A stretch of 64,000 bases of DNA. Origin: an uncultured Methylomirabilota bacterium (lineage in GTDB: Bacteria > Methylomirabilota > Methylomirabilia > Methylomirabilales > 2-02-FULL-66-22). The stretch lies in NCBI GenBank assembly GCA_963705305.1, contig OY970067.1, positions 3,520,001 through 3,584,000 of the forward strand. Reading direction: 5' to 3'. The translations under genes were made by a program, and so were the position numbers. The notes under the pieces are model-generated. The model was not told the origin of the DNA. It saw only the letters and a list, made by a program, of their open reading frames with translations, and ran no database searches. Positions 33,013 through 53,748 of the stretch are shown here, in pieces. The stretch's first letter is position 1, and each line of letters starts with the position of its first letter.

Positions 33013-33023
33013 AGGGTGCCCCT

Positions 33024-33995: not shown

Positions 33996-34038
33996 GGGAC
34001 GGTATTATGGCGATCTAAACGTCGAAAGGAGAACGCGC

Positions 34039-35397: not shown

Positions 35398-35426
35398 CGT
35401 CCGGGGAGGAGACTGGAGCAGAGGCC

Positions 35427-36260
35427 GTGAGCCAGCAGAGAGCCTTTGACGGGAAGGTCGCGTTCGTGACCGGCTCCTCCCGGGGGATCGGACGCGTCAT
35501 CGCCACCCACCTGGCGAACCTGGGAGCGTCGGTCGCCATCCAGGGGACGACGCCCACCTCCACGCGCGCCTTCGGGGAGGCCGATTCGCTTGCAACGGTG
35601 GCTCGGACGATCGAGGCGGAAACCAGGAGCAGGGTGTTTGCTGTGCATGGGGACCTCACCGACCCTAGCGTGGTCCGAGAGATGGTGCGGTTCGTGTGCG
35701 CGAACCTCGGTCCCATCGACATCCTGGTGACCTGTGCCGGTGGGGACATCGGGGCCGCTGGTACCAGCGGCCCGCGAGCGGGGAAGCCTAGCCAGAATGA
35801 CGCCCTCGCGATCTCCTACGAAGACCTCCGCGCCGTGCTCGACCGCAATCTCATGACCTGCATCCTCGTCTGCCGGGAAACGGTCCCCGGGATGGTCGAG
35901 CGCCGCCGAGGGCGGGTGGTCACCATCGGAAGCGTGGATGGGCTGATGGGGCAGGCCGAGAGCGCCATGTACGCCGCCGCGAAGGCCGCGGTTCATGCGT
36001 ACACGCGCTGTTTGGCGGTCATGCTGCGGCCCCACAACGTAACGGCCAACGTTGTGGCACCCGGCGACATCGTCACCCCCCGCTTCGTGGCCAGCCGCGC
36101 CATAGACGCCGCGAGAATGGAGGCGCCGGGTACGCTTGAGGGTTACGGCACCCCGATCGAGGTCGCGCACGCGGTGGCCTTCCTCGCCTCGGAGGAGGCA
36201 GGCTACATCACCGGACAGGTGCTTCGGGTCGACGGCGGTCTGCAGTGCTTCGCAGGTTGA
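35427..36260 (+). CDS. Short-chain dehydrogenase/reductase
   Basis: TGSSRGIG, YAAAK, NVVAPG, ITGQVLRVDGG. Confidence 0.92.
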   Translation: MSQQRAFDGKVAFVTGSSRGIGRVIATHLANLGASVAIQGTTPTSTRAFGEADSLATVARTIEAETRSRVFAVHGDLTDPSVVREMVRFVCANLGPIDILVTCAGGDIGAAGTSGPRAGKPSQNDALAISYEDLRAVLDRNLMTCILVCRETVPGMVERRRGRVVTIGSVDGLMGQAESAMYAAAKAAVHAYTRCLAVMLRPHNVTANVVAPGDIVTPRFVASRAIDAARMEAPGTLEGYGTPIEVAHAVAFLASEEAGYITGQVLRVDGGLQCFAG

Positions 36261-36344
36261 GCCGCGGGACGCTCTCCGGATTGTGGCCGAGGGTCTCTGG
36301 CGAGAGGGACAGAAGACGACTAGAGAGGGAAGGCCCGGGGAAGA

Positions 36345-37175
36345 ATGGCGAAGATAAAGATTGGCTACGTCGTGGCAACCCCTGAGGTCCGCCCGGATGA
36401 AGGTGTGACCGCCTATCAGGGGGACACGGGGACGGCCTTCCGCAGGCTCCGGGAGCTCGGGTACGATGGAGCAGAGCTGATGATCTGCGACCCGGCTTGT
36501 CTGGACCGTGCGATGGTGGAACGGCTCGCCCGGGAACACCGAATGGAGATACCGGCGCTGTGCACAGGAGAGGTGTTCGGTCAGGATCGGCTGTCCTTCA
36601 TGGATCCGGATGAGGGAATTCGGCACGAGGCGGTCCAGCGCATGAAGAAAATCATCGATTTCGCCTCGGGGTTCGGGGCCCAGGTGAATGTCGGAAGACT
36701 CCGGGGGCAGTTTCATCCGGAAATCCCCCGCGAGCGCTCACGCTCTTGGATGTTTGCCGCTTGCCAGACGGTGACAGATCACGCGGCCGCACGGGGAGTT
36801 ACGATTACGATCGAGCCGATCCCCCGCGTGGAGTGGAACAACATCTTCGACATCCGGGAGGGCATTGAGGTGGTGCGCGAAATGGGGCGGGAAAACTTCC
36901 GTCTGATGGCGGATGTCTACGCCATGAACATCGAGGAGAAATCGATCGCCCAGAGCTTCCGCGAGGCAAAACCGTACCTGTCACACATCCACATCTCTGA
37001 TTCAAACCGCCTGGCCCCTGGCGGCGGGAATCTGGACTTCCCGAAAATTGCCGAAGCGATTCGGGCGATCGACTATCGCGGCTACGTCTCGGCTGAAATC
37101 CTCCAATCTCCCAGTCAGGATATAGCCATGGAGACAAGCATCCAAGTTCTGAGACCTCTCTTAGCGGATCGGTAA
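36345..37175 (+). CDS. Sugar phosphate isomerase/epimerase (xylose-isomerase-like TIM barrel, IolO-like)
   Basis: GYDGAEL, IEP, D.YAMNIEE, HIHISDSNRLAPG.G.LDF, SAE. Confidence 0.88.
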   Translation: MAKIKIGYVVATPEVRPDEGVTAYQGDTGTAFRRLRELGYDGAELMICDPACLDRAMVERLAREHRMEIPALCTGEVFGQDRLSFMDPDEGIRHEAVQRMKKIIDFASGFGAQVNVGRLRGQFHPEIPRERSRSWMFAACQTVTDHAAARGVTITIEPIPRVEWNNIFDIREGIEVVREMGRENFRLMADVYAMNIEEKSIAQSFREAKPYLSHIHISDSNRLAPGGGNLDFPKIAEAIRAIDYRGYVSAEILQSPSQDIAMETSIQVLRPLLADR

Positions 37176-37281
37176 GCACTGCTAGAAAAAGCGCAACCGG
37201 GGCATCTCCATGAAAGGTTAGATTCTTAGCTGCTGTGGGGCCATCCATGTCTCCATTTGGGGTCCGCTCCCCAGTTCCTTA

Positions 37282-37417
37282 CCCTCATGCTCTCTCCGAT
37301 TTTCGCTCCACCTGATTGACGGGGGTCCCGGCAAGGCTCAAATGGAGCTTTGAGTCCCGCTGGGCCCCGGGCCATTACTCACGCCAACTCACGCGTCGGG
37401 GTTTGAGGAACATCGGC
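37282..37417. repeat. 136-bp diverged direct repeat, copy A, with conserved hairpin
   Basis: Colinear with 51441-51576 (offset 14159). Confidence 0.75.
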
Positions 37418-37766: not shown

Positions 37767-38243
37767 GTGGAACCCGATATTCGTGAAGCAGCGGATGACG
37801 ACCTCGAAGCGATCCTGTGCGTGTACCGCGAAGCCGGCTTAGACACTGCTGGAGGCCTGTCCGTCGCCCAGGCGCGTGCCATTCGCGACAGAATGCGCGC
37901 CTACCCGAACTACCACCTCTACGTCGCGGTGACTCAAGGACGCGTCTGCGGCACATTCGCGCTCCTCATCATGGACAACCTCGCCCATGGCGGACTGCCC
38001 TCGGGGGTGGTGGAAGACGTCGCAGTCCTACCGTCCTTCCAAGGCAAAGGAATCGGGAAGGCCATGATGCATTTTGCGATGCAGCAGTGCAAGCGCGCTG
38101 GGTGCTACAAGCTGACCCTCTCCAGCAACCAGACCCGAGAAGCCGCACACAAATTCTACGAATCGCTCGGCTTTGTGCGCCACGGGTATAGTTTCCAAGT
38201 CGACCTTGAGCAGGCCGCCGACCCGTCCGCTGGGTCAGGGTGA
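37767..38243 (+). CDS. GNAT family N-acetyltransferase
   Basis: VEDVAV, QGKGIGK, GCYKLTLSSN..RE.AH.FYESLGF. Confidence 0.9.
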   Translation: MEPDIREAADDDLEAILCVYREAGLDTAGGLSVAQARAIRDRMRAYPNYHLYVAVTQGRVCGTFALLIMDNLAHGGLPSGVVEDVAVLPSFQGKGIGKAMMHFAMQQCKRAGCYKLTLSSNQTREAAHKFYESLGFVRHGYSFQVDLEQAADPSAGSG

Positions 38244-38599
38244 TTCGTGCGACCGAAGCAGGGATCGACCCTCGCCCGCCGGGCCACCGAAGCCTGCTTC
38301 ACAGGACGCCAACGCTCGACGCAAGGTTCACCCCAAGAGGGACACTGGATTTGTGGCTTCATTACATGGCCAATGAAGGCCTTGTGGTGACGTGGGTGCC
38401 CGACCCGTTGGCGATCCGCATCAGTCTCCTCCAAATCGACAATTCGCCTCAATCCGTGCTTCCACACCGCCTAGCTCGCGCCGTCACGTCATCGCTTGTC
38501 TCTTGACGTTCCTCCGACTACGGTAGCGGGGCCTGCGGTCCGCAAGGGTGATTAGCTCAGTGGTCTTGAGTCACTGGATTTGTGATTTCACTACATGGC

Positions 38600-38639
38600 C
38601 AATGAACTACCCCGCGGCTTGCCGCGGGGTAGTTCATTG
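38600..38639. repeat. REP-like perfect palindrome
   Basis: CAATGAACTACCCCGCGGC-TT-GCCGCGGGGTAGTTCATTG. Confidence 0.75.
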
Positions 38640-38699
38640 AGGACGGAGCCAATCCTCTTACCTCTATAGTGCGGAGTCTGATACAGTTCTATCCAATGA

Positions 38700-38760
38700 C
38701 ACTTGACAAAAATGGAATATATTATAACATATAACATATACGAAATTAATTTTAACAGTT
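38700..38760 (+). promoter_or_regulatory. AT-rich promoter/operator upstream of GntR
   Basis: TTGACA at 38703, TAACAT at 38725; tandem TATAACA repeats as candidate operator. Confidence 0.55.
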
Positions 38761-38782
38761 CCGATCCAAGTCTTTATCGTTC

Positions 38783-39553
38783 ATGGGTATGGAAGCAGCC
38801 GCTACTCCAGCAATAGGCTCATGGAGTCTAGCCTTGGAACTGATGAGTTCATTTGAATCAACAGGATACGCCACAAATGCGAAAGACGATGGAGGAGAGG
38901 AAACCTACGCTTCCCTCTCTGAAATAACCTACCGGAGGATTCGCCGGTCGATCCTTCGCGGCGAGTTTCCGCCTGGCGCGAGTATTACCGAGGCCGAGTT
39001 GGCCAGCAGATTCCACGTCAGCAAAACGCCGGTCCGGGAAGCGTTGCGCCGCTTGGGACAGGAGGGGTTGATCGTCGCAGTCCCCCATCGCGGCGCCAAG
39101 GTGGCGGGGCTCACGCGGGCAGACCTTGAGGAGATCTACCTCATGCGGAGTCGCCTGGAGAGCTTGGCGGCCCGGCTCGCGGCGGAGCGACTTACGGCGG
39201 AAGACGCGGCAGAATTTCAGTCGATTCTTGCCGAATTGCAGGCGCAGACGGCCGCCGGCAATACCGACGCCATCCGTCGGCTCAACGTCACCCTGCATGA
39301 GCAGATCTGGCGCACTAGCCGGAGCCAGCGCCTGGCCCAAACGCTCTCGAATCTCCAGGATTACATCGAGATGTCTCGGGCCACAAAGCTCTCGGTGCCC
39401 CGAGGGAGCGAGCTTCTGTTCGAGGAGAACGCGCGTATCGTTCAGGCCATCCTGGCCAAAGACCCGGACCGAGCAGAACAGGCAATGATCCAGCATATCG
39501 CCTATGTGCTAGGCGAGCTTCGCAGCGGGAATCCGTCAGCTTCGGAGGGCTAG
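38783..39553 (+). CDS. GntR family regulator (FCD domain)
   Basis: VSKTPVREAL HTH, E.Y..R..LE, N..LH; start may be further downstream. Confidence 0.9.
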   Translation: MGMEAAATPAIGSWSLALELMSSFESTGYATNAKDDGGEETYASLSEITYRRIRRSILRGEFPPGASITEAELASRFHVSKTPVREALRRLGQEGLIVAVPHRGAKVAGLTRADLEEIYLMRSRLESLAARLAAERLTAEDAAEFQSILAELQAQTAAGNTDAIRRLNVTLHEQIWRTSRSQRLAQTLSNLQDYIEMSRATKLSVPRGSELLFEENARIVQAILAKDPDRAEQAMIQHIAYVLGELRSGNPSASEG

Positions 39554-39557
39554 TCCC

Positions 39558-40907
39558 GTGCCACAACACATTCAGGTTGTGCACTACATCAACCAGTTTT
39601 TCGCGGGGATCGGCGGGGAGGCGGTGGCGAACACGCCCGTGGAGCTGCGGCCGGGACCGGTGGGGCCGGGCCGGCTCCTCCAGGATGCGCTCGGGGCAGC
39701 AGCGCACGTCGCGGCCACGATCGTCTGCGGCGACAACTTCTTCAACGACGAACGGGAGCGCGCCTCTGCACGGGTCCGCGAGATCGTCCGTGAGGTGAAG
39801 CCGGCCATCGTGATTGCGGGGCCAGCGTTCGAGGCGGGGCGCTACGGGGTGGCCTGCACCGAGGTGTGCGCGATCGCCCAAAGCGAGGGGATCCCCGCGC
39901 TGACGGCGATGCACCCTGAGAACCCGGGGGTGGCCCTCCACCGCCAGGACGTGACGATCCTCCCCACGGGAAAGAGCCCCGTCGAGATGCCCACGGCGGT
40001 TCAGCGGCTGGCGCGCCTCGGCCTTCGCCTCGCGCACGGGGAAACACTGGGACCTGCAGAGGTCGAGGGTTACCTGCCGCACGGCATCCGCCGGCTCGGC
40101 CGGCGCGAGCGGCCCGGGTACCTGCGCGCGGTGGAGATGCTCGTCGCGAAGCTCGCCAATCAGCCGTTCCAGAGCGAGGTGCCGTACCAGGCGCCCGAGG
40201 CGGTCTCGCCGGCCGCGCCGGTGCGAGATCTGCGCACAGCCTCGATCGCCCTCGTCACCACCGGCGGCCTCGTCCCAAAGGGCAACCCGGAGAAGCAGAC
40301 ATCGGGCAACCCGCAACGGTTCTACGGCTACCCGGTGGAGCGGCTCGAGCGGATGCGGCCCGGCGATTGGGAGGCGTACCACGCGGGCTACTTCACGCAC
40401 ATCGTGGATGCGAACCCGGACTATGTCCTGCCACTCGGCTTCCTGCGCGAGCTCGAGGCGGCCGGCCTGATTGGCGGGATCTCCCCGAAGGTCTACACCC
40501 TGCCCGGCGTGAGCACCCCGGTGGCGAGGTCGCGAGGGCTCGGCCTCGGCATCGCGGAGGAGCTGCGGAAGGCCAACGCGGGGGGCTGCATCCTCGTCTC
40601 GACCTGAGGGACGTGCAATCGTTGCGGGGCAACGATCGCCAAGGAAGTCGAGCGGGTCGGCATCCCCGTGGCCATGATTTCGGCCATCTACGACCTGGCG
40701 CTCACCACCGGGGCGAGCCGGGTCGTCCGGGGCTGCCGGATTGAGCATGTGTGCGGCAATCCCGAGCTGGGGCCGGAAAAGGATCATGCCTACGGCCTCC
40801 AGATCGTCCGGACGGCCCTGCGGGCCCTGCAGACCCCCGTGGAGCGCCCGACGCTCTTCGATCCGCTGAAGGACGAGGTCTCGAACGAGGTGCGCCATGA
40901 GGCTTGA
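39558..40907 (+). CDS. grdB: Glycine/betaine/sarcosine reductase selenoprotein B (449 aa, Sec at codon 350, TGA 40605-40607)
   Basis: VVHYINQFFAGIGGE, GPAFEAGRYG, VTTGGLVPKGNP; in-frame TGA in ILVST-U-GTCNRCGA continues in frame to 40907; SECIS-like hairpin follows. Confidence 0.93.
40618..40636 (+). promoter_or_regulatory. Putative SECIS element of grdB
   Basis: ATCGTTGC-GGG-GCAACGAT, 10 nt after UGA. Confidence 0.7.
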
Positions 40908-42207
40908 ACTGGGCACGTTTCCCGTCCGCGAGGTTGCATTTGGTCCTGAGACCCGGTATCACAGCGGGATGCTGGAGATCGATCGCGCTCGCGTGCTGGG
41001 CGCGGTGCGCGAGGATCCCCGGGTCCGGTCCGCAGACTTGGAGCTGGCGCGGCCCGGCGAGTCCGTCCGCATCTGGCCTGTCCGGGATGTGATCGAGCCC
41101 CGTGTCAAGGTCCAGGGGCCTGGGGTCGCCTACCCCGGCGTGTGCGGGCGAGCCGTCGGCGTCGTCGGTCAGGGACGCACCCACCGGCTCGCGGGCGTCG
41201 GCGTGGTGGAAGTCTCGAATGTCAACTGGCACGACGCGGGCGGCGACTTCGTCGACCTCTACCTGGACATGTCCGGCCCGTGGGCAGAGCTCCTGCCGCT
41301 GGCCAAGCTGCAGAACGTCTGCCTGGTGGTCGAACCCGACCCCGCGCTCTCCATCGAAGCCCAGAATGACGCGGTCCACAACGCCGCCCTGGTGGTTTCC
41401 GACCGCCTGGCTGAGAGCACACGCGCACTCGAGCCGCCCGAACTGCAGGTCCTCGACCTCGAGGCCCGCACGAATCCGGCCCTGCCCAGCGTGGTCTACA
41501 TCTGGTGCCTCCATTCCCCACAGGGGATGTCGAATGCTCTGAACACGTTCTGCACGGCGACCTACGGGCTCACGCGGCTCACGCCGCCATGGGTGCTCCA
41601 CCCCAACGAGGTGGTGGATGGCGCGATCAACGGCCCGTACCGCACGTCGTTCGCCACATCCTGGACCGTGGTCAACAATCCGCTCTTCCTGGAGCTGTAT
41701 CGCCGGCACGGCGTCGACTTCAACTTCCGGGCCGTGCTCGCGTTCCGGACGGAGTGGACCACCCAGCGGGAGAAGGACCTGATGGCCGAGCAGGCGGCGA
41801 AAACGGCCGAGCTGCTGGGGGCGCAGGGGGCGGTGGTCACCTGGGACGCGGGCGGCAACGAGTTCATCGAGGTGATCCACACGGTGCGCGCCTGCGAGCG
41901 CCGGGGGATCAAGACCGTGTTCCTGACCAGCGAAGATTCGCCGGAGGGCGGGGCGCCCACCCTGCTCGAGCCCTGTCCCGAGGCGGACGCGATCGTCACC
42001 ACCGGCTTTTTCAGCACCTCCGTGATGGATCTCGGGCTCCTCCCGGCTGTCCAGCGGGTCATCGGCAATCCGCTGAAGGTCCGCGGGCGCATGCGGGACG
42101 GGGCGATCCCGGAGGCCGGCGCCGCACAGACGGCAACTGCTCTCGCGCCGCCCGGCCGCTACGACGACCACTACGGCTTTGGCACCCTCACCTCTTTCAT
42201 GTACTAG
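40897..42207 (+). CDS. Glycine/sarcosine/betaine reductase component B subunit (GrdE/GrdI-like)
   Basis: MRLELG, ARPGESVRI.PVRDVIEPRVK, GRTH.L.G, DMSGP, HPNEVVDGAI, NNP, GIKTV. Confidence 0.88.
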   Translation: MRLELGTFPVREVAFGPETRYHSGMLEIDRARVLGAVREDPRVRSADLELARPGESVRIWPVRDVIEPRVKVQGPGVAYPGVCGRAVGVVGQGRTHRLAGVGVVEVSNVNWHDAGGDFVDLYLDMSGPWAELLPLAKLQNVCLVVEPDPALSIEAQNDAVHNAALVVSDRLAESTRALEPPELQVLDLEARTNPALPSVVYIWCLHSPQGMSNALNTFCTATYGLTRLTPPWVLHPNEVVDGAINGPYRTSFATSWTVVNNPLFLELYRRHGVDFNFRAVLAFRTEWTTQREKDLMAEQAAKTAELLGAQGAVVTWDAGGNEFIEVIHTVRACERRGIKTVFLTSEDSPEGGAPTLLEPCPEADAIVTTGFFSTSVMDLGLLPAVQRVIGNPLKVRGRMRDGAIPEAGAAQTATALAPPGRYDDHYGFGTLTSFMY

Positions 42208-42237
42208 GGAGCCGTCCGAAGAGCGGAGGTAGTGACG

Positions 42238-43692
42238 ATGAGCCCCACGGGTGGGCAGCCGGTCATTCGGGGCGCCCGGTTCTTCCTGGCGCACGCGCCG
42301 GGCCTCGTCCGCTACGGCTCGAAGCCCCGCCGGGAACTCGCCAAGGATGCCGCCCTCCTCGACCGCCTTACCCCGCACCTCCGCGCGTGGGATGGGGCGG
42401 CCGCGTACCCGCCGAACCAGGCATTCCTCGGCGGCATCTACCCGGACGACCTCGCCGCCATCCCCCGCCCCTGGTTTACAGGGGATCGCGCCCCTCTCCG
42501 CCGCCACCCCCACGGCGAGCTCATGCCGGAGGAGGAGTTCTACGGCCTCCTGAAGCTCTGCGACTGCTTCGATCTCCTGGCACTCGAGACCTCGTTCGCT
42601 GCCGAGGCAGCCACCGCGCTGGCGGCGCACCCCGATCTGCGGCCCGAGGAATCGGCTCGGGTCGCGGGAGGCGCGACCCTCGGGAGCATCGAAGCCGAAG
42701 TGGGGGGCCCGCAGCAGACGCTCCCGCTCTTCCTCCGCTCGGGCCGACTGGTGGGGTGCATCCGGCGGGGGCACGAGGAGGATACCGCCCTCACCGCCGA
42801 TCTCCTGCTCGAGAACCTCGCGTGCAAGGCGACCGCCACGATGGCCCTCCGGCAACTCCTCCGCGAGCAGGTGGTGGATCCGGGCCGCATTGAATACGTC
42901 ATCAACTGCGGCGAGGAGGCCGTGGGGGACCGGTACCAGCGGGGCGGCGGAAACCTCGCGAAAGCGGTTGCCGAGATGTGCGGGTGTGGGGAGGCAACCG
43001 GCTCGGACATCAAAGCGTTCTGCTGCGCACCGGTGCACGCCTTGGTCCTAGCTGGGGCGCTGGTTGCCGCGGGCGTCTACAGGCAGGTGGCCGTGGTCGC
43101 GGGCTGCTCCCTGGCGAAGCTCGGGATGAAATTCCAGGGGCACCTCGCCAAGGGACAGCCTGTGCTCGAAGACGTGCTCGCAGGGGCCGCAGCGCTCGTG
43201 AGCCAGGACGACGGATGTTCACCCGTGCTGCGCCTTGACTCGGTCGGCCGCCACCCCGTGCAGGCCGAGGGCGCCCAGCAGCGCATCCTCGAGGCCCTCG
43301 TGGAAGAGCCCCTCCGGCGGCTGGGGCTCCGGTTCGGCGACGTCGACAAGTACGCCACGGAGCTGCACAACCCGGAGGTCACGGAGCCGTCCGGCAGCGG
43401 CAATGTCCCCCTGCTGAACTACCGCCTCATCGCCGCTATGGCGCTCCGCGCCAAAGAACTCGATCGCGCCGGCCTCTCGGACTTCGTCCAGCGGCACGGG
43501 CTTCCGGGCTACGCGCCGACGCAGGGACACATCGCGTCGGCCATCCCCTTTCTCGGCCACGCATACGACCGGCTGACCGTCGGCACGATGACGCGAGCCA
43601 TGTTCCTGGCCAAAGGGAGCCTCTTCCTGGGCCGGATGACACAGATGTCCGACGGGCTGTCATTCGTTCTTGAGCGCAATCCCCGGGCCTGA
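42238..43692 (+). CDS. grdC: Glycine/sarcosine/betaine reductase component C beta subunit (FabH-like fold)
   Basis: YPPNQ, ENLACKAT, EEAVGDRYQRGGGNLAKA, KLGM, GYAPTQGHI, KGSLFLGRMT. Confidence 0.92.
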   Translation: MSPTGGQPVIRGARFFLAHAPGLVRYGSKPRRELAKDAALLDRLTPHLRAWDGAAAYPPNQAFLGGIYPDDLAAIPRPWFTGDRAPLRRHPHGELMPEEEFYGLLKLCDCFDLLALETSFAAEAATALAAHPDLRPEESARVAGGATLGSIEAEVGGPQQTLPLFLRSGRLVGCIRRGHEEDTALTADLLLENLACKATATMALRQLLREQVVDPGRIEYVINCGEEAVGDRYQRGGGNLAKAVAEMCGCGEATGSDIKAFCCAPVHALVLAGALVAAGVYRQVAVVAGCSLAKLGMKFQGHLAKGQPVLEDVLAGAAALVSQDDGCSPVLRLDSVGRHPVQAEGAQQRILEALVEEPLRRLGLRFGDVDKYATELHNPEVTEPSGSGNVPLLNYRLIAAMALRAKELDRAGLSDFVQRHGLPGYAPTQGHIASAIPFLGHAYDRLTVGTMTRAMFLAKGSLFLGRMTQMSDGLSFVLERNPRA

Positions 43693-43728
43693 CGCACGGG
43701 ATCGAGAGGCAGAAGGAGGTCGACCGCG

Positions 43729-44178
43729 ATGGAGCTTCGAGGTAAGAAGGTGATCGCGATTGGCGAGCGCGACGGGGTGGCCGGCTCGGCCATCGCCGCG
43801 TGCGCCAAGAGCGCAGGGGCTAGTGTCGTCTACGAGATGACGCACTGCTTCGTCTGAACGGCCGCCGGCGCACTTGACCTGGAGGGTCAAGAGGCAATCA
43901 AAACCACCGTGGCCAGGGTGGGCGCCGAGAACCTCATCGTCCTGCTAGGTACACCGAACCCAGAGAGCAGCGAGCTGTTCGCCGTCACGCTCAGCGAAGG
44001 CGACCCGACGTGGGCGGGACCGCTCGCGGGTGTTCGCCTGGGGCTCCCAGTCTTCCACATCACCGAGCCAGACATCCGAGGCCAGATTCCAGAGGACGTG
44101 TACGAGGCGCAAGTCGGCTTGGCTGAGGCCGTGCTCGACACCGACGCCATTGCCGGCGTGCTCCGCGCCCGACGGTGA
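43729..44178 (+). CDS. grdA: Reductase complex selenoprotein A (149 aa, Sec at codon 43, TGA 43855-43857)
   Basis: [20 protein letters not shown]...[15 protein letters not shown]...[25 protein letters not shown]-like hairpin follows. Confidence 0.93.
43873..43891 (+). promoter_or_regulatory. Putative SECIS element of grdA
   Basis: CTTGACC-TGGAG-GGTCAAG, 15 nt after UGA. Confidence 0.7.
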
Positions 44179-44234
44179 ATCGTCCTGGGCGAAGGGACGG
44201 CGGGAGCCCCTCGCCATATGGAGAGGAGGAGGAC

Positions 44235-45251
44235 ATGGAGCGCCACAGTTCGCTTGGAATCCTACTGATCGCCGTCGGCATTCTGCTCGTGTCCGGGTTG
44301 ACGGCGGGACCCGCGGCTGAGGCCCAGGCGAAGAAGATCGTGATGAAGTTCGGCACCGTCTTACCCAACGGCAGCGGCGAGGACCAGGGTGCCCACAAGT
44401 TCGCGGAGCTGGTGGCGCAGAAGACGGGCGAGCAGGCCGAAGTGCAGGTGTTCCCGAACTCGCAGCTCGGCGATGCGAAGAGCCAGCTCCAGGCGGTGGC
44501 CGTCGGCGGCCAGGACTTCTTCATGGACGGCATCGGCTGGTACGTCAGCTTCGACAAGGACTGGACCCCCTTCGCGCTGTGCTTCGCCATTCAGGACCGG
44601 GACGCGTTGCTCCGGGTGCTGGATTCCCCGGTCGGCCGCGAGGTGGAAAGCCGCCTGCTGAAGAAGGGGATCCGCGTAGCAGCGCACAACTGGTGGAAAG
44701 GAGAGCGCTCGCTGATTTCGCGGAAGCCGGTCCGGAGCCTCGCCGAGGCCCAGAACATTATGATGCGCGTGCCGAGCAAGGCGTTTTTCCTCGCCTGGCA
44801 AGGGATCGGGACCCGGCCGACCATCACCGCGACCTCCGAGATATTCACCGCCCTCCAGCAGGGTGTCGTCGACGCCGCCGAGAGCCCCATCATGGACATG
44901 TATACGCTGAAGCTCTACGAACCGGCGCCGCATATCACGCTGACCCGCCACCTGCAGAACATGGCTGCGGTGTCGGTGAGCGAGAAACTGTACGAGACCT
45001 GGCCCCCGAACGTGCAGAAGGCGGTGCTCGAGGCGGCCCGCGAGGCGGGCGAGGCTGAATACGGGTACGAGCTCGCCCACACGAAAGATGCCGTGGCCCA
45101 GATGAAGGCCGCGGGCGTGGCCGTTTACGAGCCCCTGCCGTCGCGGGAAGCGTGGTTCGCGAAGGTGGCGAACCTCCCGGAGAAACTCGAGGCGCAGGGG
45201 GAGTGGAGCAAGGGGCTCTGGGCCCGCATCCAGGCGGCGATCAAGCAGTGA
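44235..45251 (+). CDS. dctP: TRAP transporter substrate-binding protein
   Basis: Signal peptide, FPNSQLG, MRVP, ALQQGVVDAAE. Confidence 0.92.
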   Translation: MERHSSLGILLIAVGILLVSGLTAGPAAEAQAKKIVMKFGTVLPNGSGEDQGAHKFAELVAQKTGEQAEVQVFPNSQLGDAKSQLQAVAVGGQDFFMDGIGWYVSFDKDWTPFALCFAIQDRDALLRVLDSPVGREVESRLLKKGIRVAAHNWWKGERSLISRKPVRSLAEAQNIMMRVPSKAFFLAWQGIGTRPTITATSEIFTALQQGVVDAAESPIMDMYTLKLYEPAPHITLTRHLQNMAAVSVSEKLYETWPPNVQKAVLEAAREAGEAEYGYELAHTKDAVAQMKAAGVAVYEPLPSREAWFAKVANLPEKLEAQGEWSKGLWARIQAAIKQ

Positions 45252-45409
45252 CTTGCGGCGCGTGGGGGGTCTGGACCGGGTGCTCCTCAGAGGCATCGCC
45301 GATCGGTGAGCGGCCTGTCTCGGGCAGCGTGAGAGTGCTCCGACTTCACCCACCGCGCGCACCTTTTCGGCCAGAGAAGCCAGCGACTCATCTGTAGGAG
45401 ATATGACAG

Positions 45410-45955
45410 GTGGCGCGTGCAGGGCGGTACCTGCGGTGGGTGGGCGGCAACCTGGAAGAGATCGCTGGCTGCGCCTTCTTCGTCGGCATGGTCGGCAGCG
45501 TGAGCATCGGCGTCCTCTTCCGGTACGGGATCCGCCGCCCGCTCCTCTGGACGGAGGATGTCTCCACGCTCTGCTTCGTCTGGACGGTATTCCTCGGCAC
45601 AGCCGCGACGGCCAAGCACCGCACCTACCTCGCCGTCGATGCACTCATCGTGCACTTCCCGACGCCGCTTCAGCGTGCCATAGCGCTGCTCATCGACCTG
45701 TTGACGGTGGCACTCACGGGGGCCATCGCCGTTTTGGGGGTCCAGTACGCGCTGAGCCAGCAGGGGGTCACCACCGAGGCACTCGAGCTCCCGACAATGT
45801 GGTACGCTTTCGCGGTCCCCGTGTGGGGTGTGCTCGCGTGCGGCTACGCCGTCCGCGATTTCGTCCGGCACCTTCGGACCCCAGCGCTCGGGCCCTCCCC
45901 TGCTCGGGGGGGTCCGCTCCCCGGCTTCGTGAGCAGCGGCGGAGCGGGCCGATGA
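45410..45955 (+). CDS. dctQ: TRAP transporter small permease
   Basis: FRYG...PLLWTED, W.VFLG, four TM segments. Confidence 0.85.
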   Translation: MARAGRYLRWVGGNLEEIAGCAFFVGMVGSVSIGVLFRYGIRRPLLWTEDVSTLCFVWTVFLGTAATAKHRTYLAVDALIVHFPTPLQRAIALLIDLLTVALTGAIAVLGVQYALSQQGVTTEALELPTMWYAFAVPVWGVLACGYAVRDFVRHLRTPALGPSPARGGPLPGFVSSGGAGR

Positions 45956-47232
45956 ATGCGCTGTGGCTGGTCTTGGCCTTCCTGCTGTTTCTCCTCCTCG
46001 GCACCCCCGTCGGTTACGCCCTGGGTTTTGCGTCGTTCTTCTACCTGTTATTTCTCAATCACCTCCCGCTCATCATGGTGGCGCAGCGGCTCACAGCCTC
46101 CCTTGACAACTTCGTGCTCATGGCCGTGCCCTTCTTCATCCTGGCCGGCAACCTCATGAACACGGGGGGCATCACCGACCGGCTGGTGCGGTTCGCGATG
46201 AACACGGTCGGGCACGTTCGCGGTGGCCTCGCGCACACCACCATCGTCACCAACATGATCATGGCGGGGATGTCCGGATCCGCGGTGGCCGATTGCGCGG
46301 GGACCGGGATCGTACTCATTCCCGCGATGCAGAAGGAGGGGTATCCCAGCGAGGTAGCCGCCGGTGTCACGGCCTCAGCGGCCACCATTGGGCCGATCAT
46401 CCCCCCCAGCATTCCCATGGTGCTCTACGGCGCCATGGCGGGCGCCTCGATCACGAAGCTCTTCGTGGCCGGGTTCCTGCCGGGCGTGCTCATGGGCCTC
46501 GCCCTGATGACGATGGTGTACCTACGGGCGAACCGCTGGGGCCTCGGGGCTCACCGGCGGGCGTCTTTTGCCGAGTGGCTTCGGGCCCTCTGGCACGCGC
46601 TCCTGCCCCTTGGGCTCCCGGGCGTGATCATGGGCGGGATCCTGTTTGGGGTCTTCACGCCAACGGAGGCGGCGGCCATTGCCGCAGTGTACGCGGCCGC
46701 GTTGGGGACGTTCGTGTACCACGAGATGGGCGCCAAGTCGACGCTCCTGGTGGCCCGGGACTCGCTGTACCGCACCGCGACCGTGCTGTTCATTTTTGCA
46801 AACGCGGTGGTCTTCTCTTGGCTCATCACGGTCGAGCGGGTGCCGGACCTGGCCAGCAACTGGGTGCTGGGGGTGACGCATAGCCCCGCCTTGGTGCTCC
46901 TCATCATCAATGTGTTCCTACTCATCGCGGGGTGCCTCCTCGACCCCACACCGATCTTGCTAATTACGGTGCCCGTTCTGGCGCCGCTCGCCTCGAAGGT
47001 GGGCATCGATCTCGTGCACTTCGGGGTCGTCATGGTCCTCAACTTAATGATCGGGCTCCTCATGCCGCCCATGGGACTCAACCTCTACATTGTTTCCGAC
47101 ATCTCGCACATCCCCTATTCGCGGGCCCTGCGCGGGACCGCACCGTTCGTCGTCCCGCTCCTGATCGTGCTGGCCCTGATCACGTACGTCCCCCAGGTGG
47201 TCATGTGGCTGCCGGGACTGCTTTTGAAATGA
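45952..47232 (+). CDS. dctM: TRAP transporter large permease
   Basis: MAVPFFILAG, MSGSAVAD, IIPPSIP, FTPTEA, MPPMG. Confidence 0.93.
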   Translation: MNALWLVLAFLLFLLLGTPVGYALGFASFFYLLFLNHLPLIMVAQRLTASLDNFVLMAVPFFILAGNLMNTGGITDRLVRFAMNTVGHVRGGLAHTTIVTNMIMAGMSGSAVADCAGTGIVLIPAMQKEGYPSEVAAGVTASAATIGPIIPPSIPMVLYGAMAGASITKLFVAGFLPGVLMGLALMTMVYLRANRWGLGAHRRASFAEWLRALWHALLPLGLPGVIMGGILFGVFTPTEAAAIAAVYAAALGTFVYHEMGAKSTLLVARDSLYRTATVLFIFANAVVFSWLITVERVPDLASNWVLGVTHSPALVLLIINVFLLIAGCLLDPTPILLITVPVLAPLASKVGIDLVHFGVVMVLNLMIGLLMPPMGLNLYIVSDISHIPYSRALRGTAPFVVPLLIVLALITYVPQVVMWLPGLLLK

Positions 47233-47244
47233 GGAGGTGAAGCG

Positions 47245-47505
47245 ATGGCCCACGTCACGGTCTACACGAACTTCGGGTGAGGGGGGTGCCACCGAGCGAT
47301 GGAGTTTCTGTCGCAGAAGTCCGTCCCGTTCACCGAGAAGAACATCGGGCGCGACCCGGAGGCCCGGCGAGAGCTCCTGGCTATGGGACTGACGTCGCTC
47401 CCCGTGATCGTCATCGGGAATCAGAAGCTCTCGGGATTTGATCCTGCGCGCATTGCCGCCGCGCTGGCGGAGTCGGCAGAGAAAAGTCACTCCAAAGAAG
47501 CGTAA
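47245..47505 (+). CDS. Glutaredoxin/NrdH-like selenoprotein (86 aa, UxxC, TGA 47278-47280)
   Basis: GAGGAGGT SD; MAHVTVYTNFG-U-GGCHRAMEFL...SLPVIVIG...GFD is a Grx fold with the first Cys position encoded by TGA; hairpin follows. Confidence 0.88.
47296..47314 (+). promoter_or_regulatory. Putative SECIS element of the glutaredoxin-like gene
   Basis: GCGATGGA-GTT-TCTGTCGC (two G-U pairs), 15 nt after UGA. Confidence 0.55.
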
Positions 47506-47711
47506 CGCATACTTCGTACTGTTGCTCATGAAGGGGATCGTGAAGTTGGGAGCTGTAGCGCGTGTGGGAGCGTAGAAAAGGGGAGAGAACACCAGAATCC
47601 TGTGTGACGCCGTGGCCTCCGAGCGCCTCACCACAGACGAAAGCGGTATAGGTCGTGGCGGAGTGTTCGCCCTTGCGGTCTGACGTTTGGGCGTGGGGTG
47701 ACGGAGGGCCC

Positions 47712-47727
47712 TGTGATTTCATTCACT
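47712..47727. promoter_or_regulatory. CRP/FNR-family-like box
   Basis: TGTGA-N6-TCACT upstream of dctP. Confidence 0.4.
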
Positions 47728-47844
47728 ATCGGTCCCGAAAGCGTGCGAAAGGAGGTGGTGCCTGCGAAGATGAGCGCGGCGAATCCGCTCTAGGCGTTGG
47801 CGTGACTCCTTCAATGTCTGCCACTTATCGGGAGGTACGACTCA

Positions 47845-48849
47845 ATGGGATCCCAGGCGCCGCATCGAAACTCCATTTTGCGCATAGCGTTGGCTGCCGC
47901 GGTAGTCGTCCTAGTTGCGGCCGCCGGTCCCGCCTGGGCCGCCGCCAAGGTCATTCGGCTGGGGGACAGCGGGACCGAGCAGAACCCGCAGTTTCGGGCT
48001 CATCAGTTCTTGGCCAAACGGATCTCTGAGCTGACGAACGGTCAAATTGAAGTCAAAATCTTCATGAATGCGCAGCTCGGCGGCCACACGCAGATGAACG
48101 AACAGGTGGCCGAGGGTGCCCTGGAACTCGCCAAGGCCCCCAGCGCCTTCATGAGCACCTATGACAAACGGATGTCCATCTGGAGCCTGCCGTACTCCTT
48201 CTCAAGCCTCGAAAAACTCTACGCTGCGGAGGACGGGAGGCTTGGGCAGGCGTATGCGGCAATTGGCGAGAAGTACGGCTTCAAACTGCTCTCCTTCTAT
48301 CACGCGGGCACCCGGGACATCTACAACAAGAAAGGCCCCATCAGAACGTCCGATGACCTGAAAAATCTCCACATCCGCCTGCGGGTCATGCCGGACCCGG
48401 TAATGATTGACGCCCTGAACGCGATGGGAGCCCAGGCGACGCCGATGGAGGCGAACGAAGTCTACAACGGCATCCAGCAGGGCGTCATTGACGGGGCCGA
48501 GAACTCCATCACATGGTACCTCACCATGAAGCACTTTGAGGTGGCCCCCTATTTTTCGCTCACGCATCATTTCTACAGCGTCGACACCATCGTCGTGAGC
48601 ATGCGCTGGTTCGAGCAACAGACGCCGGAAATTCAGCGAGCGTTCGTCCAGGCAGGGAAAGAGACCACCTTGTTTGAGCGGAGGGCCTGGGCCGAGGATG
48701 AGCAGAAGAGCTACGCGAAGGCCAAGGCTGCCGGCATCAAGATCAACGAGGTCGACATCGCATCCTTCCAGAAGGCGGTGAAGCCGGTGCTGGAGAAGTA
48801 CGGGCCGTCCCTCGGAGACCTGTACACGATCCTCAAGGAATACCAGTAG
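47845..48849 (+). CDS. dctP: TRAP transporter substrate-binding protein
   Basis: Signal peptide, NAQLG, LRVMP, QQGVIDGAEN. Confidence 0.92.
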   Translation: MGSQAPHRNSILRIALAAAVVVLVAAAGPAWAAAKVIRLGDSGTEQNPQFRAHQFLAKRISELTNGQIEVKIFMNAQLGGHTQMNEQVAEGALELAKAPSAFMSTYDKRMSIWSLPYSFSSLEKLYAAEDGRLGQAYAAIGEKYGFKLLSFYHAGTRDIYNKKGPIRTSDDLKNLHIRLRVMPDPVMIDALNAMGAQATPMEANEVYNGIQQGVIDGAENSITWYLTMKHFEVAPYFSLTHHFYSVDTIVVSMRWFEQQTPEIQRAFVQAGKETTLFERRAWAEDEQKSYAKAKAAGIKINEVDIASFQKAVKPVLEKYGPSLGDLYTILKEYQ

Positions 48850-48878
48850 AAGCGATCCCCCTGCCAACCTCCGTCCTA

Positions 48879-49073
48879 GCCGTTACACAAAGGTGTTGAT
48901 AACGGTCGGCGTTTCGCTAGTAACGGCATGAATTGGTTGACCGAATCGGAACGCCTTGTCGGGGAAGAAATCTTCCTCGATGTCAGCTCAATCCGAAAAG
49001 GACGGAATGCGCTGTAACCACAGAGGAATCGCGCCTATTGACAAGCGAATCTTCAACACCTTTGTGTAGCGGG
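48879..49073. mobile_element. MITE-like element (~195 bp)
   Basis: TIRs CCGTTACACAAAGGTGTTGA / TCAACACCTTTGTGTAGCGG; TA (or TAG) on both sides; no ORF. Confidence 0.7.
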
Positions 49074-49579
49074 TAGACCTCCGTCCGGGGCTGGGGAGGG
49101 GGCTCGACACCGAATGGATGATTGCCGGCCACCCCGCGAGCTTGGCCAGCGGGCCGAGAGAGGTTAGATAGAGGCAATTCCTATGGTCTAGGCGATCATG
49201 CGTCGGTGCAAAGGGAAGATGCCGGAACCTGAAGCTGTCGTTCAGGAGCTTAGAAGGAGGGGGGTGGTCCGGAGTTCTTTTTCGCTTGGCTGCCGCGGGC
49301 GCATAACCAGGGGCTGCCCAATGCAAGCCCGGAAGTTATGTGCCCGCGGCATGCACGACTTGAGGCTTCCCTGGTGAAGAGTGCGTCAAAATGCGGGGTC
49401 CACATTCATGCCCAGTAACCAATTGAATGTGCGCAGAAGGATGGCTTTGTTTGCCCAGTGTGAATCGTTCATCCGCAGTGCCTTTTCCATGGCCCTGGAC
49501 GCATTTTCAATATGGGATTGCGTGAGAGAATTGGCATGCCCACGGTAGTAGTTCCGTTGAAAAATGGGGGACTTCTGAC

Positions 49580-50107
49580 GTGACAGCGACCACGTACCCC
49601 GACGAGCGGGCGCAACTCTCGTGCCTCGATCGAATCAACCGGATGGTCGCCCTGGCAGAAAACGTGCTGGGTATCGCCCTGGTAGTCACAGTGGTGATCG
49701 TGGTGAGCATGCAGGTCGGGTTTCGGTACTTCCTGAACCAGCCCCTCTCCTGGTCTGGTGAGACCGCCACGTACCTCCTGGTCTGGACGACGTTTCTCGG
49801 GATGGCTGTCGCTCAGCGAGAAAGAGCCCACGTGGCCATGCAGGTGCTGCCCACGATGCCCCGATTGGCTCAGCGGACGGTGGATTGGATCTGCTGGCTG
49901 GCTACTTTTGGCATGTTTCTGTCGCTGGGTCTGGGGGGACTCGAGCTTGCGTTCTTGCACCACATCCAGCGGTCACCCGCCACAGGTCTGCCGATTTGGG
50001 TTGTCTACACCGCAGTCCCCGTGGGCGGCGCCTTGGGGATCTGGCACACCGTCCAGGATCTGCCGGGGCTCATCCGCGGAGCGGAAAGGCCGAAGGGATG
50101 GCACTAG
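49580..50107 (+). CDS. dctQ: TRAP transporter small permease
   Basis: QVGFRYFLNQPLSWSGE, WTTFLG, HVAM. Confidence 0.88.
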   Translation: MTATTYPDERAQLSCLDRINRMVALAENVLGIALVVTVVIVVSMQVGFRYFLNQPLSWSGETATYLLVWTTFLGMAVAQRERAHVAMQVLPTMPRLAQRTVDWICWLATFGMFLSLGLGGLELAFLHHIQRSPATGLPIWVVYTAVPVGGALGIWHTVQDLPGLIRGAERPKGWH

Positions 50108-51396
50108 TCCTCACGATCGGATTTCTTGCGCTCCTGCTGCTGGGCGCGCCCATCCTGGCGGCCATGAGCTTGGGGACATGGCTGTCGCTTGTGACATACA
50201 GCCGGCCTTCCTACCTGCTGGCACAAACCGCCTTCTACGGGATCAGTTCTTTCACCCTGCTCGCCATCCCGCTGTTCGTGCTGGCCGGCGAGATTATGGA
50301 CAAGGGCGGCATCTCCGCGCGCTTGGCGCGATTCGTCATCATGCTGGTGGGCTGGCTCCCCGGGGGCTTGGGCATCTCGGTGGTGCTCACCACCATGCTT
50401 TTCTCCGGGATCTCGGGCTCCGTCAACGCCGACGCAGCCGCGATCGGCTCGGTAATGCTGCCCATGATGCACGAGGCGGGGTACCGAAAAGAGTGGGCGT
50501 CCTCGATTGTGGCCGCGTCGGCCGGGACTGGCATCCTAATCCCGCCCTCGATCACCATGATCGTACTGGGGACCATTGCCAATTTGTCCATTAAGCAGCT
50601 GTTCCTAGCCTCCCTGCTTCCGGCCGCCCTCATCGGCCTCTCCAAGGCGGTCGTTATCTGGTACAAAGCCAGAATGGGGTGGGAGCGGAGCCAAGAACGC
50701 GTGGTCTTTTCCTGGCGGCAGATGCTGTCGGCGACGCTGGAGGCGATTCCCGCCCTCATTGCGCCCGGAATTATCATGGGCGGAATCCTCTCAGGCATCT
50801 TCACGGCGACAGAGGCCGCTGCGGTGGCGGTCCTGTATGCAATCCTCGTCAGCGTCGTACTCTATGGTGAGATTACCTGGCAGAAGATGGGAAGCATGCT
50901 GGTCGCGACCGTCCGCCTGAGCGGGGTGGTCATCGGGCTTGTCGGAGCGGCCTCGGCCATCGCCTATGTCATGGCATATACGGAAGCCTCGAACCAATTG
51001 GCCGCGCTCGCGAGCGGTGTCATCGACCACTACCTGCTGTTCATCACGCTGCTCACGGCCCTCTTCTGGGTGCTCGGCGCCATGCTGGACGGCATCCCAG
51101 CCCTCGTGATCCTGATCCCGGTGTTCATGCCTCTCGCGGAGAAAGCGGGGATGCACCCTATTCACTTCGCGATCTTCTCTCTTGCGGTGTTTGGCATCTC
51201 ACTGGTGACCCCCCCACTGGGGACGGCCTGCTTCGTGGTGACCTCCTTGGCTGGGATAGAGATGAAACGGCTCATCTGGCCGATGCTTCCTTTCCTGGCC
51301 ATCATGTTCGGTACAATCCTAATCCTGTCATACGTTCCCTGGTTCTCCCTTGCACTGCCCAAGCTTTGGGGTGGATTGATCGTAATTCCGCAATGA
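50098..51396 (+). CDS. dctM: TRAP transporter large permease
   Basis: LLAIPLFVLAG, ISGSVNAD, LIPPSI, FTATEA, TPPLG. Confidence 0.93.
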   Translation: MALVLTIGFLALLLLGAPILAAMSLGTWLSLVTYSRPSYLLAQTAFYGISSFTLLAIPLFVLAGEIMDKGGISARLARFVIMLVGWLPGGLGISVVLTTMLFSGISGSVNADAAAIGSVMLPMMHEAGYRKEWASSIVAASAGTGILIPPSITMIVLGTIANLSIKQLFLASLLPAALIGLSKAVVIWYKARMGWERSQERVVFSWRQMLSATLEAIPALIAPGIIMGGILSGIFTATEAAAVAVLYAILVSVVLYGEITWQKMGSMLVATVRLSGVVIGLVGAASAIAYVMAYTEASNQLAALASGVIDHYLLFITLLTALFWVLGAMLDGIPALVILIPVFMPLAEKAGMHPIHFAIFSLAVFGISLVTPPLGTACFVVTSLAGIEMKRLIWPMLPFLAIMFGTILILSYVPWFSLALPKLWGGLIVIPQ

Positions 51397-51831
51397 TGAC
51401 GGCCCGAGAATTGCCTCGGGTACGGGACCTCCGTTCCCAGCCCTCATGCTCCCTCCTGTTTTCCCTGCTCCTGGTTGACTGGGGCCCCGGCAAGGCTCGA
51501 ATCGGGCTTTGAGTCCCGCTGGGCCCCAGCCCAATGGTCGCGGTGGCTTAGGCATCCGGGTTTGGGGAACATCGGCGCGCTCCGGGCTCCTCTCACCCGG
51601 CGCCAGGGCGCCCTCCCGGGCGGCGATCGCCGCCTGCCAGTCCGCCAGGGCGCCGAACTGTACCGCCTCGTCCATCCCCACGTTCTGGAGGAGGGCCGCG
51701 AACAGATACAGCCGATCCTGGGCCCGGGCGTGCATGTGTCCGTCCGTCAGTTCCAGCGGCCAGGTGAGCGTCAGGTACTGCGCCTCGGTGAGCGGCTGCG
51801 GCGCGCGGCCGACGGTCCAGTCGGTGTGCAT
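51328..51831 (-). CDS. Hypothetical protein (3' part runs through repeat copy B and may be non-native)
   Basis: AAAGGAGG SD; N-terminal ~75 aa look protein-like. Confidence 0.45.
   Translation of the reverse strand: MHTDWTVGRAPQPLTEAQYLTLTWPLELTDGHMHARAQDRLYLFAALLQNVGMDEAVQFGALADWQAAIAAREGALAPGERSPERADVPQTRMPKPPRPLGWGPAGLKARFEPCRGPSQPGAGKTGGSMRAGNGGPVPEAILGPSSLRNYDQSTPKLGQCKGEPGNV
51441..51576. repeat. 136-bp diverged direct repeat, copy B
   Basis: Colinear with 37282-37417. Confidence 0.75.
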
Positions 51832-53585: not shown

Positions 53586-53606
53586 GAGACAGGGGGCCGG
53601 CAAAGA

Positions 53607-53639
53607 AAGTGCTCGGAATCCAAAGGATTTCGGGCACTT
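53607..53639 (+). repeat. Diverged copy of the post-tRNA-Glu hairpin
   Basis: AAGTGCTCGGAATCCAAAGGATTTCGGGCACTT, 29/33 identical to 16834-16866. Confidence 0.7.
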
Positions 53640-53748
53640 ACTGTATTCAGGCGCAGTAGGGGACATGTAACCCGCTTGATTGCCCACGAGCCTCCCGGTT
53701 GCCCCGCTGAATCCGACGGCTCATCCCCATGCAAACGATGAGGAGCCA

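Follow-up and report, generated by a model that had tools for sequence, protein, structure and literature searches.

A probable selenocysteine-dependent Grd-type reductase operon with its own TRAP importer in an uncultured Methylomirabilota bacterium

The window analysed here is a stretch of 64,000 nucleotides from the genome of an uncultured Methylomirabilota bacterium (contig OY970067.1, positions 3,520,001 to 3,584,000). Coordinates refer to the window unless the genome is named. Nine co-directional genes lie on its + strand at 38783-47505 once in-frame TGA is read as selenocysteine (Sec, U). These are gntR, grdB, a grdE-like gene, grdC, grdA, dctP, dctQ, dctM, and grx, and the three dct genes encode a tripartite ATP-independent periplasmic (TRAP) importer. 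The group is probably a working, horizontally acquired operon for a Sec-dependent reductase of the Grd type, and it belongs to a large uncharacterised environmental clade. The genes and associated features are as follows.

38696..38780, + strand: cluster of sigma-70-like promoter matches immediately 5' of gntR (4 against 0.9 expected from shuffles; consensus matches only).
38783..39553, + strand: GntR-family regulator with an FCD effector domain (GntR 65.9 bits, FCD 90.6 bits).
39558..40907, + strand: grdB-like selenoprotein B, 450 codons (Sec350 is TGA 40605-40607, in STUGTCNRC, a UxxCxxC motif; PF07355, 378 bits).
40608..40645, + strand: selenocysteine insertion sequence (SECIS) of grdB (RF01990 SECIS_4, 42.2 bits, gathering score 38, E 3.6e-7).
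40897..42207, + strand: grdE-like protein B subunit, 436 aa, without the pyruvoyl-forming Cys (PF09338, Gly_reductase, 266 bits).
42232..43692, + strand: grdC, protein C beta subunit, KAS-III-like with DUF5940, 486 aa (NF040746, 617 bits against a cut-off of 450).
43729..44178, + strand: grdA, selenoprotein A, 149 aa (Sec43 is TGA 43855-43857, in CFVU; NF040748, 188.6 bits against a cut-off of 130).
43873..43891, + strand: SECIS-like hairpin after the grdA TGA (fold with an 8-bp stem and a GGA loop).
44235..45251, + strand: TRAP solute-binding protein DctP (PF03480, 194 bits; an alternative GTG start lies at 44175, and a strong Shine-Dalgarno sequence precedes the ATG at 44235).
45410..45955, + strand: TRAP small permease DctQ (PF04290, 94.4 bits).
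45952..47232, + strand: TRAP large permease DctM (PF06808, 404 bits; TIGR00786, 447 bits against a cut-off of 268).
47245..47505, + strand: grx, a small glutaredoxin/NrdH-like redoxin, 86 aa (Sec12 is TGA 47278-47280, in GUGGC; PF00462, 49.2 bits against a cut-off of 22.9).
47296..47314, + strand: SECIS-like hairpin after the grx TGA (fold with an 8-pair stem including G-U pairs; the loop begins with G).
47692..47715, + strand: terminator-like hairpin 3' of grx (consensus match only).

An earlier note on this DNA had placed these nine genes in this order on one strand, with in-frame TGA at the catalytic site of three of them (STUGTC, CFVU, and UGGC) and an 11-nt overlap of grdB and grdE. All nine genes were found as placed, and the TGA codons correspond to U350, U43, and U12. 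The raw sequence gives an overlap of exactly 11 nt, as the grdB stop is at 40905-40907 and the grdE ATG is at 40897. Intergenic spacing within the operon ranges from -11 to +158 nt. Every gene was assigned by Pfam and NCBIfam, with scores far over the cut-off for GRDB, GRDA (189 bits), Gly_reductase, and GrdC; all genes are full length, and there is no frameshift. A single promoter-like cluster lies ahead of gntR, and the first strong terminator-like hairpin occurs only after grx. The ATG of grx is preceded by a Shine-Dalgarno sequence (AGGAGGTG). The GC content of the grd genes is 0.69, which is host-like.

On comparative evidence, the three operon TGAs are Sec codons, because the Sec machinery is present, grdB carries a SECIS, TGA is kept in relatives, and a Cys form exists at the Grx site. 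The genome is a single contig of 5.65 Mb and possesses selA (577 bits), selB (313 bits), and selD (342 bits), with the gene for tRNA-Sec (selC) beside selB. The earlier note had made its proposal depend on this machinery, and the proposal was not refuted on this point. The selD gene itself carries an in-frame TGA. At the same position of grdB, SECIS_4 was found at gathering score in the canonical grdB of Acetoanaerobium noterae (65 bits) and in 6 of the 7 clade loci searched; no match was obtained in the seventh (L033). In tblastn alignments crossing the Sec site, the codon is TGA in 111/111 high-scoring segment pairs of clade GrdB, 8/8 of the paralogue, and 46/46 of GrdA. C40 and U43 of GrdA are invariant in 12 of 12 sequences. 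The Sec site of Grx is Cys in the homologue at locus L107 (CKPC) and TGA in the homologue at L135 and in the genome's own paralogue. GC content at third codon positions of the coding type (0.80-0.89) persists past each of the three TGAs. Compact hairpins begin 13-18 nt 3' of all three in-frame TGAs and follow none of three genuine TGA stops; the fold z-scores of these hairpins are not significant.

Other candidate Sec genes are located in the genome outside the window. A second glutaredoxin-like gene (genome 1503410-1503625) is 43% identical to the operon Grx, and a TGA opens its redox motif (PG-U-GSC). A stand-alone PrdB-like candidate selenoprotein of 268 aa (genome 5538755-5539561) contains a TGA in frame (TPA-U-GLC) and reaches 170 bits with the PrdB model TIGR04483, whose cut-off is 300. 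It is the sole other GrdB-superfamily gene in the genome.

By its sequence, the protein B of the window is outside the characterised GrdB/F/H clade and outside the equivalogs, a placement that the earlier note had left to phylogeny and that the tree, the motifs, and the identities all bear out. GrdB is over the cut-off of the broad "various selenoprotein B" subfamily only (TIGR01918, 400 bits against 65). It is under the equivalog cut-offs for glycine (TIGR01917, 362 against 602), sarcosine (GrdF, NF040794, 417 against 800), and betaine (GrdH, NF040795, 358 against 775). The GrdE-like protein is likewise far below the NCBIfam models for GrdG (213 against 780) and FarE (NF053623, 118 against 675). 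Named references were taken from plasmid records and include grdG-grdF of Peptoclostridium acidaminophilum, grdE-grdA-grdB-grdC-grdD of A. noterae, the Grd locus of Photobacterium sp. DA100, and the betaine locus of Enterococcus gilvus. Identity of the window GrdB to GrdH, GrdF, and GrdB is 38-41%, and that of the GrdE-like protein to GrdI, GrdG, and GrdE is 32-35%. Among themselves, the canonical proteins share 47-65% (GrdB/F/H) and 39-63% (GrdE/G/I) identity.

The U350-G-T-C-N-R-C segment of GrdB aligns with canonical STUGTCTRC, and the N-terminal YxNx6GGE and CGD elements are retained. Both the GrdB and the GrdF regex motifs, as given in the available part of PMC9751293, are failed by the window GrdB. 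It has AYHAGYF in place of AHGGxD/IHGGYDR, and TLPGVSTPV in place of TxGNxTxV/TTGTGT. H-A-G is present in the window GrdB as in GrdH, and H-G-G in GrdB and GrdF. No relatives of GrdB or of the GrdE-like protein were found in the PDB.

A search of the whole library returned 1497 GrdB relatives at E<=1e-3. Most of these end at the Sec codon. The 89 representatives of at least 330 aa were scanned; nearly all fit the broad subfamily only, and a handful are canonical-looking. A FastTree of 107 rows was built from 83 of these 89 (six odd or partial ones were dropped), the window, 20 locus-derived sequences, and 3 named references, and 61 representatives shorter than 330 aa were left out. The window GrdB was placed in a clade of 21 rows, all from environmental loci, with SH-like (Shimodaira-Hasegawa-like) support of 95. 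The characterised GrdB/F references and the GrdH-like representatives form a separate clade of 13 rows. In other uncharacterised branches there are natural GrdE-GrdB fusions of ~780 aa (database representatives P0147, P0164, P0181, and P0228), and the FarE model gives 359 bits with the N-terminal half of P0164. In P0250 a GrdB N-terminus is apparently joined to a phosphotransacetylase, which may be a gene-call artefact.

The second subunit differs at the site where the pyruvoyl group is formed. In GrdE of Clostridioides difficile this group sits on a residue derived from Cys242, according to the available text of PMC9908766. The site reads SGN-C242-VxxC-DK in GrdE of A. noterae, GrdG of P. acidaminophilum, and GrdE of Photobacterium. 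The window protein and all GrdE-like proteins of the clade have NGP---YRTS, with Cys242 and Cys246 absent and three residues deleted. GrdI of E. gilvus is likewise without Cys242. FarE, like GrdI, is described in the accessible portion of PMC10838667 as having no processing cysteines and as not being a proprotein, and the carbonyl chemistry is tied there to amine substrates. No glycine riboswitch was found at E<=1 within 38000-48500. One of 59 bits (L161:5561-5659) lies ahead of the canonical A. noterae grd operon.

GrdD is absent genome-wide and not only from the operon, as the earlier note had claimed for the operon. The best match to the GrdD model (NF040747) in the whole genome has 24 bits and is plsX, which is the genome's sole gene of the PlsX/GrdD superfamily (392 bits to PF02504). 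The model also found nothing in 5 chromosome-level metagenome-assembled genomes carrying the cluster, in 251 genomes of the window's phylum, or in 401 sampled genomes of the phylum of genome G005. The absence of GrdD in 251 species of this phylum agrees with the description of the system as non-clostridial. As the null results in 251 and 401 genomes are by themselves no proof that the model can detect GrdD, a positive control was taken from plasmid records. GrdD was detected in A. noterae (581 bits) and Photobacterium (549 bits), a few kb from grdA.

The window GrdC is 41-42% identical to canonical GrdC. In the clade, Cys264 is invariant, Cys265 is present in 91%, and Cys252 in 93%. In the two canonical GrdC sequences, position 265 is Ala and position 252 is Phe or Cys. 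It is a matter of speculation that the extra Cys of clade GrdC compensates for GrdD. TrxB is encoded elsewhere in the genome.

The core cluster is not confined to this bacterium. Relatives of the GrdE-like protein numbered 1180 at E<=1e-10, and the best 120 clusters are all at least 65% identical. A total of 129 loci (49 genome and 80 metagenome) were explored. The lineages represented are Entotheonella/Tectimicrobiota, Rokubacteria/Methylomirabilota, Dehalococcoidia/SAR202, Acidobacteriota, Binatia, SAR324, and Deferrimicrobiaceae. With tblastn, GrdE was found in 129 loci, GrdB in 117, GrdC in 53, and GrdA in 48, usually in the order B-E-C-A; many of the loci are too short for all four core genes. 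The grdB-grdE-grdC-grdA core is, as far as sequence conservation tells, under purifying conservation and forms a common environmental lineage. No paper on this GrdD-less clade was found by full-text searches of the literature, subscription journals and bioRxiv supplements aside.

The flanks of the clade loci were scanned for neighbouring genes, using 109 of 137 flank open reading frames (ORFs) from 12 of 13 loci after L142 (a duplicate of L040) and 14 short end ORFs were dropped. No conserved neighbour gene was found among them. Neighbours restricted to sub-lineages are a DAO-type oxidoreductase with DsbA in the Rokubacteria-like loci L028 and L118, an OprB porin in L026 and L031, an EVE domain in Entotheonella, a SelD-like gene in L037, and a Dpp-type ATP-binding cassette (ABC) system in L135. 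A second, divergent GrdE/GrdB pair is present near the first in the Rokubacteria-like loci L028 (13307-16220), L045, L050, L053, L064, and L118. These second pairs are 33-35% (GrdE) and 41-46% (GrdB) identical to those of the window, and a DsbA-like gene is nearby in L028 and L118. Their position near the first pair suggests that several protein-B modules share one GrdA and GrdC in Rokubacteria-like loci.

What is special to this copy is the TRAP importer, the Sec-glutaredoxin, and the GntR regulator; the core cluster is not unique. GntR reaches none of the NCBIfam equivalog cut-offs and scores best with phnR_burk (124 against 271). A GntR orthologue of 61% identity occupies the same position upstream of grdB in 2 of the 129 loci (L027 and L125). 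DctP belongs to a rare subfamily in which 17 clusters are at least 58% identical and all others less than 40%. Among 250 other genomes of the phylum, no DctP orthologue was found at E<=1e-70 (8 candidates scored per genome). Grx is under the NCBIfam family cut-offs for YruB (62.7 against 88.6), NrdH (57.7 against 85.8), and Uxx-star (42.2 against 66).

The distribution of the cluster gives good support to its horizontal acquisition, since all 20 of the 20 congeners lack orthologues. Within the phylum, orthologues (E<=1e-100, 64-70% identical) were detected in a single other family, where 29 of 159 genomes carry them; the 91 genomes outside that family, congeners among them, have none. The closest database relatives are metagenomic and 86-89% identical. 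A tRNA-Gln/Glu pair at 16.6-16.8 kb, lower-GC flanks, and an integrase (52980-53687) are found in the surroundings. The proposal that the operon is island-borne is upheld by this distribution, with the tRNA pair, the integrase, and repeats resembling miniature inverted-repeat transposable elements (MITEs) nearby. The repeats are the following.

37269..37417, + strand: MITE-like 149-nt repeat, left copy (79% identical to the right copy).
51428..51576, + strand: MITE-like 149-nt repeat, right copy (79% identical to the left copy).

The 149-nt repeat has four copies in the genome and complementary ends. The two copies in the window bracket a 14-kb segment that contains a GNAT gene, the Grd operon, and a second TRAP system. 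The repeat was also considered as an RNA and rejected, as it has no Rfam match and no significant fold. The second TRAP system is complete (DctP, DctQ, and DctM), lies at 47845-51396 immediately 3' of grx, and is within the bracketed segment. Upstream, a catabolic-looking block at 27909-37175 encodes a Dpp/Opp-type ABC transporter, a class-III aminotransferase, a short-chain dehydrogenase, and a xylose-isomerase-like TIM-barrel protein. An insertion sequence (IS) of 1522 nt with a DDE_Tnp_1_4 transposase is present at 12157-13678 and 55870-57391 as inverted identical copies. A composite transposon formed by this pair was rejected; the pair is not special, because ~26 near-identical full-length copies exist in the genome. 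These copies point to a very recent transposition burst of this IS.

The enzyme of the operon probably cleaves an acetate-type compound rather than glycine. From the chemistry of the family and the catalytic residues present, a pathway can be proposed. A carboxylate of the form X-CH2-COO- would be imported by the operon's TRAP system and sensed by GntR/FCD. Sec350 of GrdB, with the unprocessed GrdE-like subunit, would displace X, and the resulting carboxymethyl-selenoether would pass to Sec43 of GrdA. Cys40 of GrdA could then resolve the selenoether, giving an acetyl thioester on Cys264 of GrdC. There being no GrdD, acetyl would be released by another route, which may yield acetate, acetyl-CoA, or, through a different enzyme, acetyl phosphate. 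Oxidised GrdA would be re-reduced by the co-encoded Sec-glutaredoxin, possibly fed by TrxB from elsewhere in the genome.

The nature of X can be approached through protein B and the transporter. The GrdE-like protein has no pyruvoyl Cys, as in GrdI and FarE, so X is likelier a group that leaves readily without a Schiff base. An onium group as in betaines and thetins, a halide, or something similar is more likely than the amino group of glycine or sarcosine. The H-A-G shared with GrdH is a weak pointer to a bulky onium substrate, and the presence of a TRAP importer suggests that the carboxylate is exogenous. The more specific proposal is tentative and has well under an even chance of being right. 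It holds that an anionic acetate derivative, and not glycine, sarcosine, or glycine betaine, is imported by TRAP and cleaved at C-X, and that acetyl leaves GrdC without GrdD. Candidate substrates would be a thetin or other onium acetate, a haloacetate, or sulfoacetate, and release could proceed, for example, to CoA via Cys264-Cys265. If true, the Grd family would gain a substrate class and a chemistry of product release that are both new to it, in lineages that are not considered strict fermenters.

Another explanation, which appears rather unlikely, is that the operon encodes an ordinary glycine-betaine reductase carrying out the GrdH/GrdI reaction (to trimethylamine and an acetyl unit) with its accessory parts exchanged. 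The GrdE-like protein is without Cys242, as is GrdI in the part of PMC10838667 that deals with it. H-A-G occurs in both the window GrdB and GrdH, and the E. gilvus locus also pairs grdHI with a dedicated transporter and a GntR. Zwitterionic osmolytes such as ectoine are also carried by TRAP systems. However, the GrdH model gives 358 against its cut-off of 775, which is no better than GrdF (417) or GrdB (362), and GrdH (38%) and GrdI (32%) of E. gilvus give the lowest identities among the canonical comparisons. GrdH-like representatives also group with canonical GrdB/F and not with the window, the second substrate motif is TLPGVSTPV against ATVGTGTTQ in GrdH, and betaine transporters of the BCCT or Opu type are absent.

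A true glycine or sarcosine reductase, serving glycine catabolism or a reductive-glycine route and merely diverged in a distant phylum, is improbable. GrdA and GrdC are orthologous to the canonical proteins, UxxCxxC and CxxU are intact, and relatives are named "glycine reductase" or "sarcosine reductase" in databases, where the names are automatic. Against this, the pyruvoyl Cys242 of the characterised glycine and sarcosine enzymes (aa242 in the available text of PMC9908766) is absent, the GrdB and GrdF motifs failed, the glycine riboswitch is lacking, and the protein is outside the canonical clade. That the genes are decaying remnants in which the TGAs are stops and the cluster is non-functional for want of GrdD is very improbable: GrdD is indeed missing, and standard gene callers do cut GrdB at the TGA so that most representatives are ~349-aa fragments, but alignments run at full identity across the TGAs in 165/165 cases, the SECIS is conserved, the Sec machinery is intact, the genes are full length, and the GrdD-less state is common to whole phyla.

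Several observations weigh against the reading of the operon as a Sec-dependent reductase with its own importer and redoxin, or limit it. The hairpins after the grdA and grx TGAs have no Rfam match, and their fold z-scores (-1.65 for grdA and -0.30 for grx) are not significant. The FastTree is based on N-terminal fragments and leaves 41 of 104 inner branches unresolved, many of them deep. By tblastn, DctP, DctQ, and DctM are present in none of the 129 clade loci, and DctP relatives share no contig with GrdE relatives, so the tie between the TRAP importer and the reductase rests on this one operon. The best solved relatives of DctP score ~120 bits or less and are too distant to name a ligand. 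Grx was found near the cluster in just 2 of the 129 loci, and its role as the reductant of GrdA is putative. The replacement of Trx by a seleno-glutaredoxin, as proposed in the earlier note, is likewise putative, with TrxB encoded in trans.

In the literature covered here, Grd-type selenoenzymes are regarded as rare catabolic enzymes of anaerobic amino-acid fermenters. GrdBE is reported in 0.35% of GTDB species from natural habitats in the available part of PMC9751293, and GrdB works only anaerobically (Haft preprint 10.1101/2022.07.06.499078). For this branch, which is without the acetyl-phosphate-forming subunit and without the pyruvoyl site, both the textbook substrate and the energy-conserving step are in question. 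This copy is the most useful entry point seen, as it alone has a solute-binding protein and a ligand-sensing regulator. DctP and GntR contain no selenocysteine and are thus expressible and screenable handles for finding the substrate.

Several known systems resemble the operon in part. The glycine/sarcosine reductases of Peptostreptococcales share with it the selenoprotein B motif STUGTCxRCGAT, the CxxU of selenoprotein A, GrdC, and a two-gene protein B, and the grdB SECIS of A. noterae belongs to the same Rfam model as that of the window. Identity to the Peptostreptococcales references is 40% (B), 35% (E), 41-42% (C), and 46-52% (A). The window differs from them in its gene order B-E-C-A, in having no Cys242/Cys246, GrdD, or glycine riboswitch, and in its substrate motifs. 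Unlike the Peptostreptococcales operons, the operon of the window is also without trxA/trxB and grdX.

The betaine locus of E. gilvus pCR1A is arranged as trxB-trx-grdA-grdC-grdD-grdI-grdH-BCCT-GntR. Both it and the window have an alpha subunit without Cys242, the HAG variant, a dedicated importer, a GntR, and a redoxin. GrdH and GrdI are 38% and 32% identical to the window proteins, and the GrdH model gives 358 against 775. The window has TRAP in place of the BCCT transporter and a Sec-glutaredoxin in place of Trx/TrxB, and GrdD is present in E. gilvus only.

In the FarACEB system of Cloacibacillus porcorum, a Grd-type protein B is recruited to a non-amine X-CH2-COO- substrate and uses a shared GrdA and GrdC. 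Like the window, it has an E subunit without the pyruvoyl cysteines and a dedicated transporter in the operon. FarB has no CxxC after the Sec, whereas the window GrdB retains UxxCxxC; Far also has an MFS antiporter, a radical-SAM protein, and a host with GrdD, unlike the window (these features of Far are as given in the accessible part of PMC10838667). The GrdE-like protein of the window gives only 118 against 675 with the FarE model.

In Photobacterium sp. DA100, dctM and dctP adjoin grdA-grdA-grdC-grdD...grdE-grdB, which is a non-clostridial precedent for Grd with TRAP. That locus is canonical, unlike the window: GrdD scores 549 bits, GrdE has Cys242, and GrdB is in the characterised clade. 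Its DctP is only 22% identical to the DctP of the window. Sec-glutaredoxins with UxxC, for example of the Clostridium oremlandii type described in the available portion of PMC13188914, are small Trx-fold proteins with Sec first in U/CxxC, as in the window Grx. The window Grx is unlike them in being encoded at the end of a Grd/TRAP operon. The reading given in the earlier note is on the whole upheld. The note had also called the operon its main candidate for a novel system. This overstates its uniqueness, because the core four-gene cluster recurs in an environmental lineage, and Grd loci with TRAP (Photobacterium) or with a transporter and GntR (E. gilvus) already exist.

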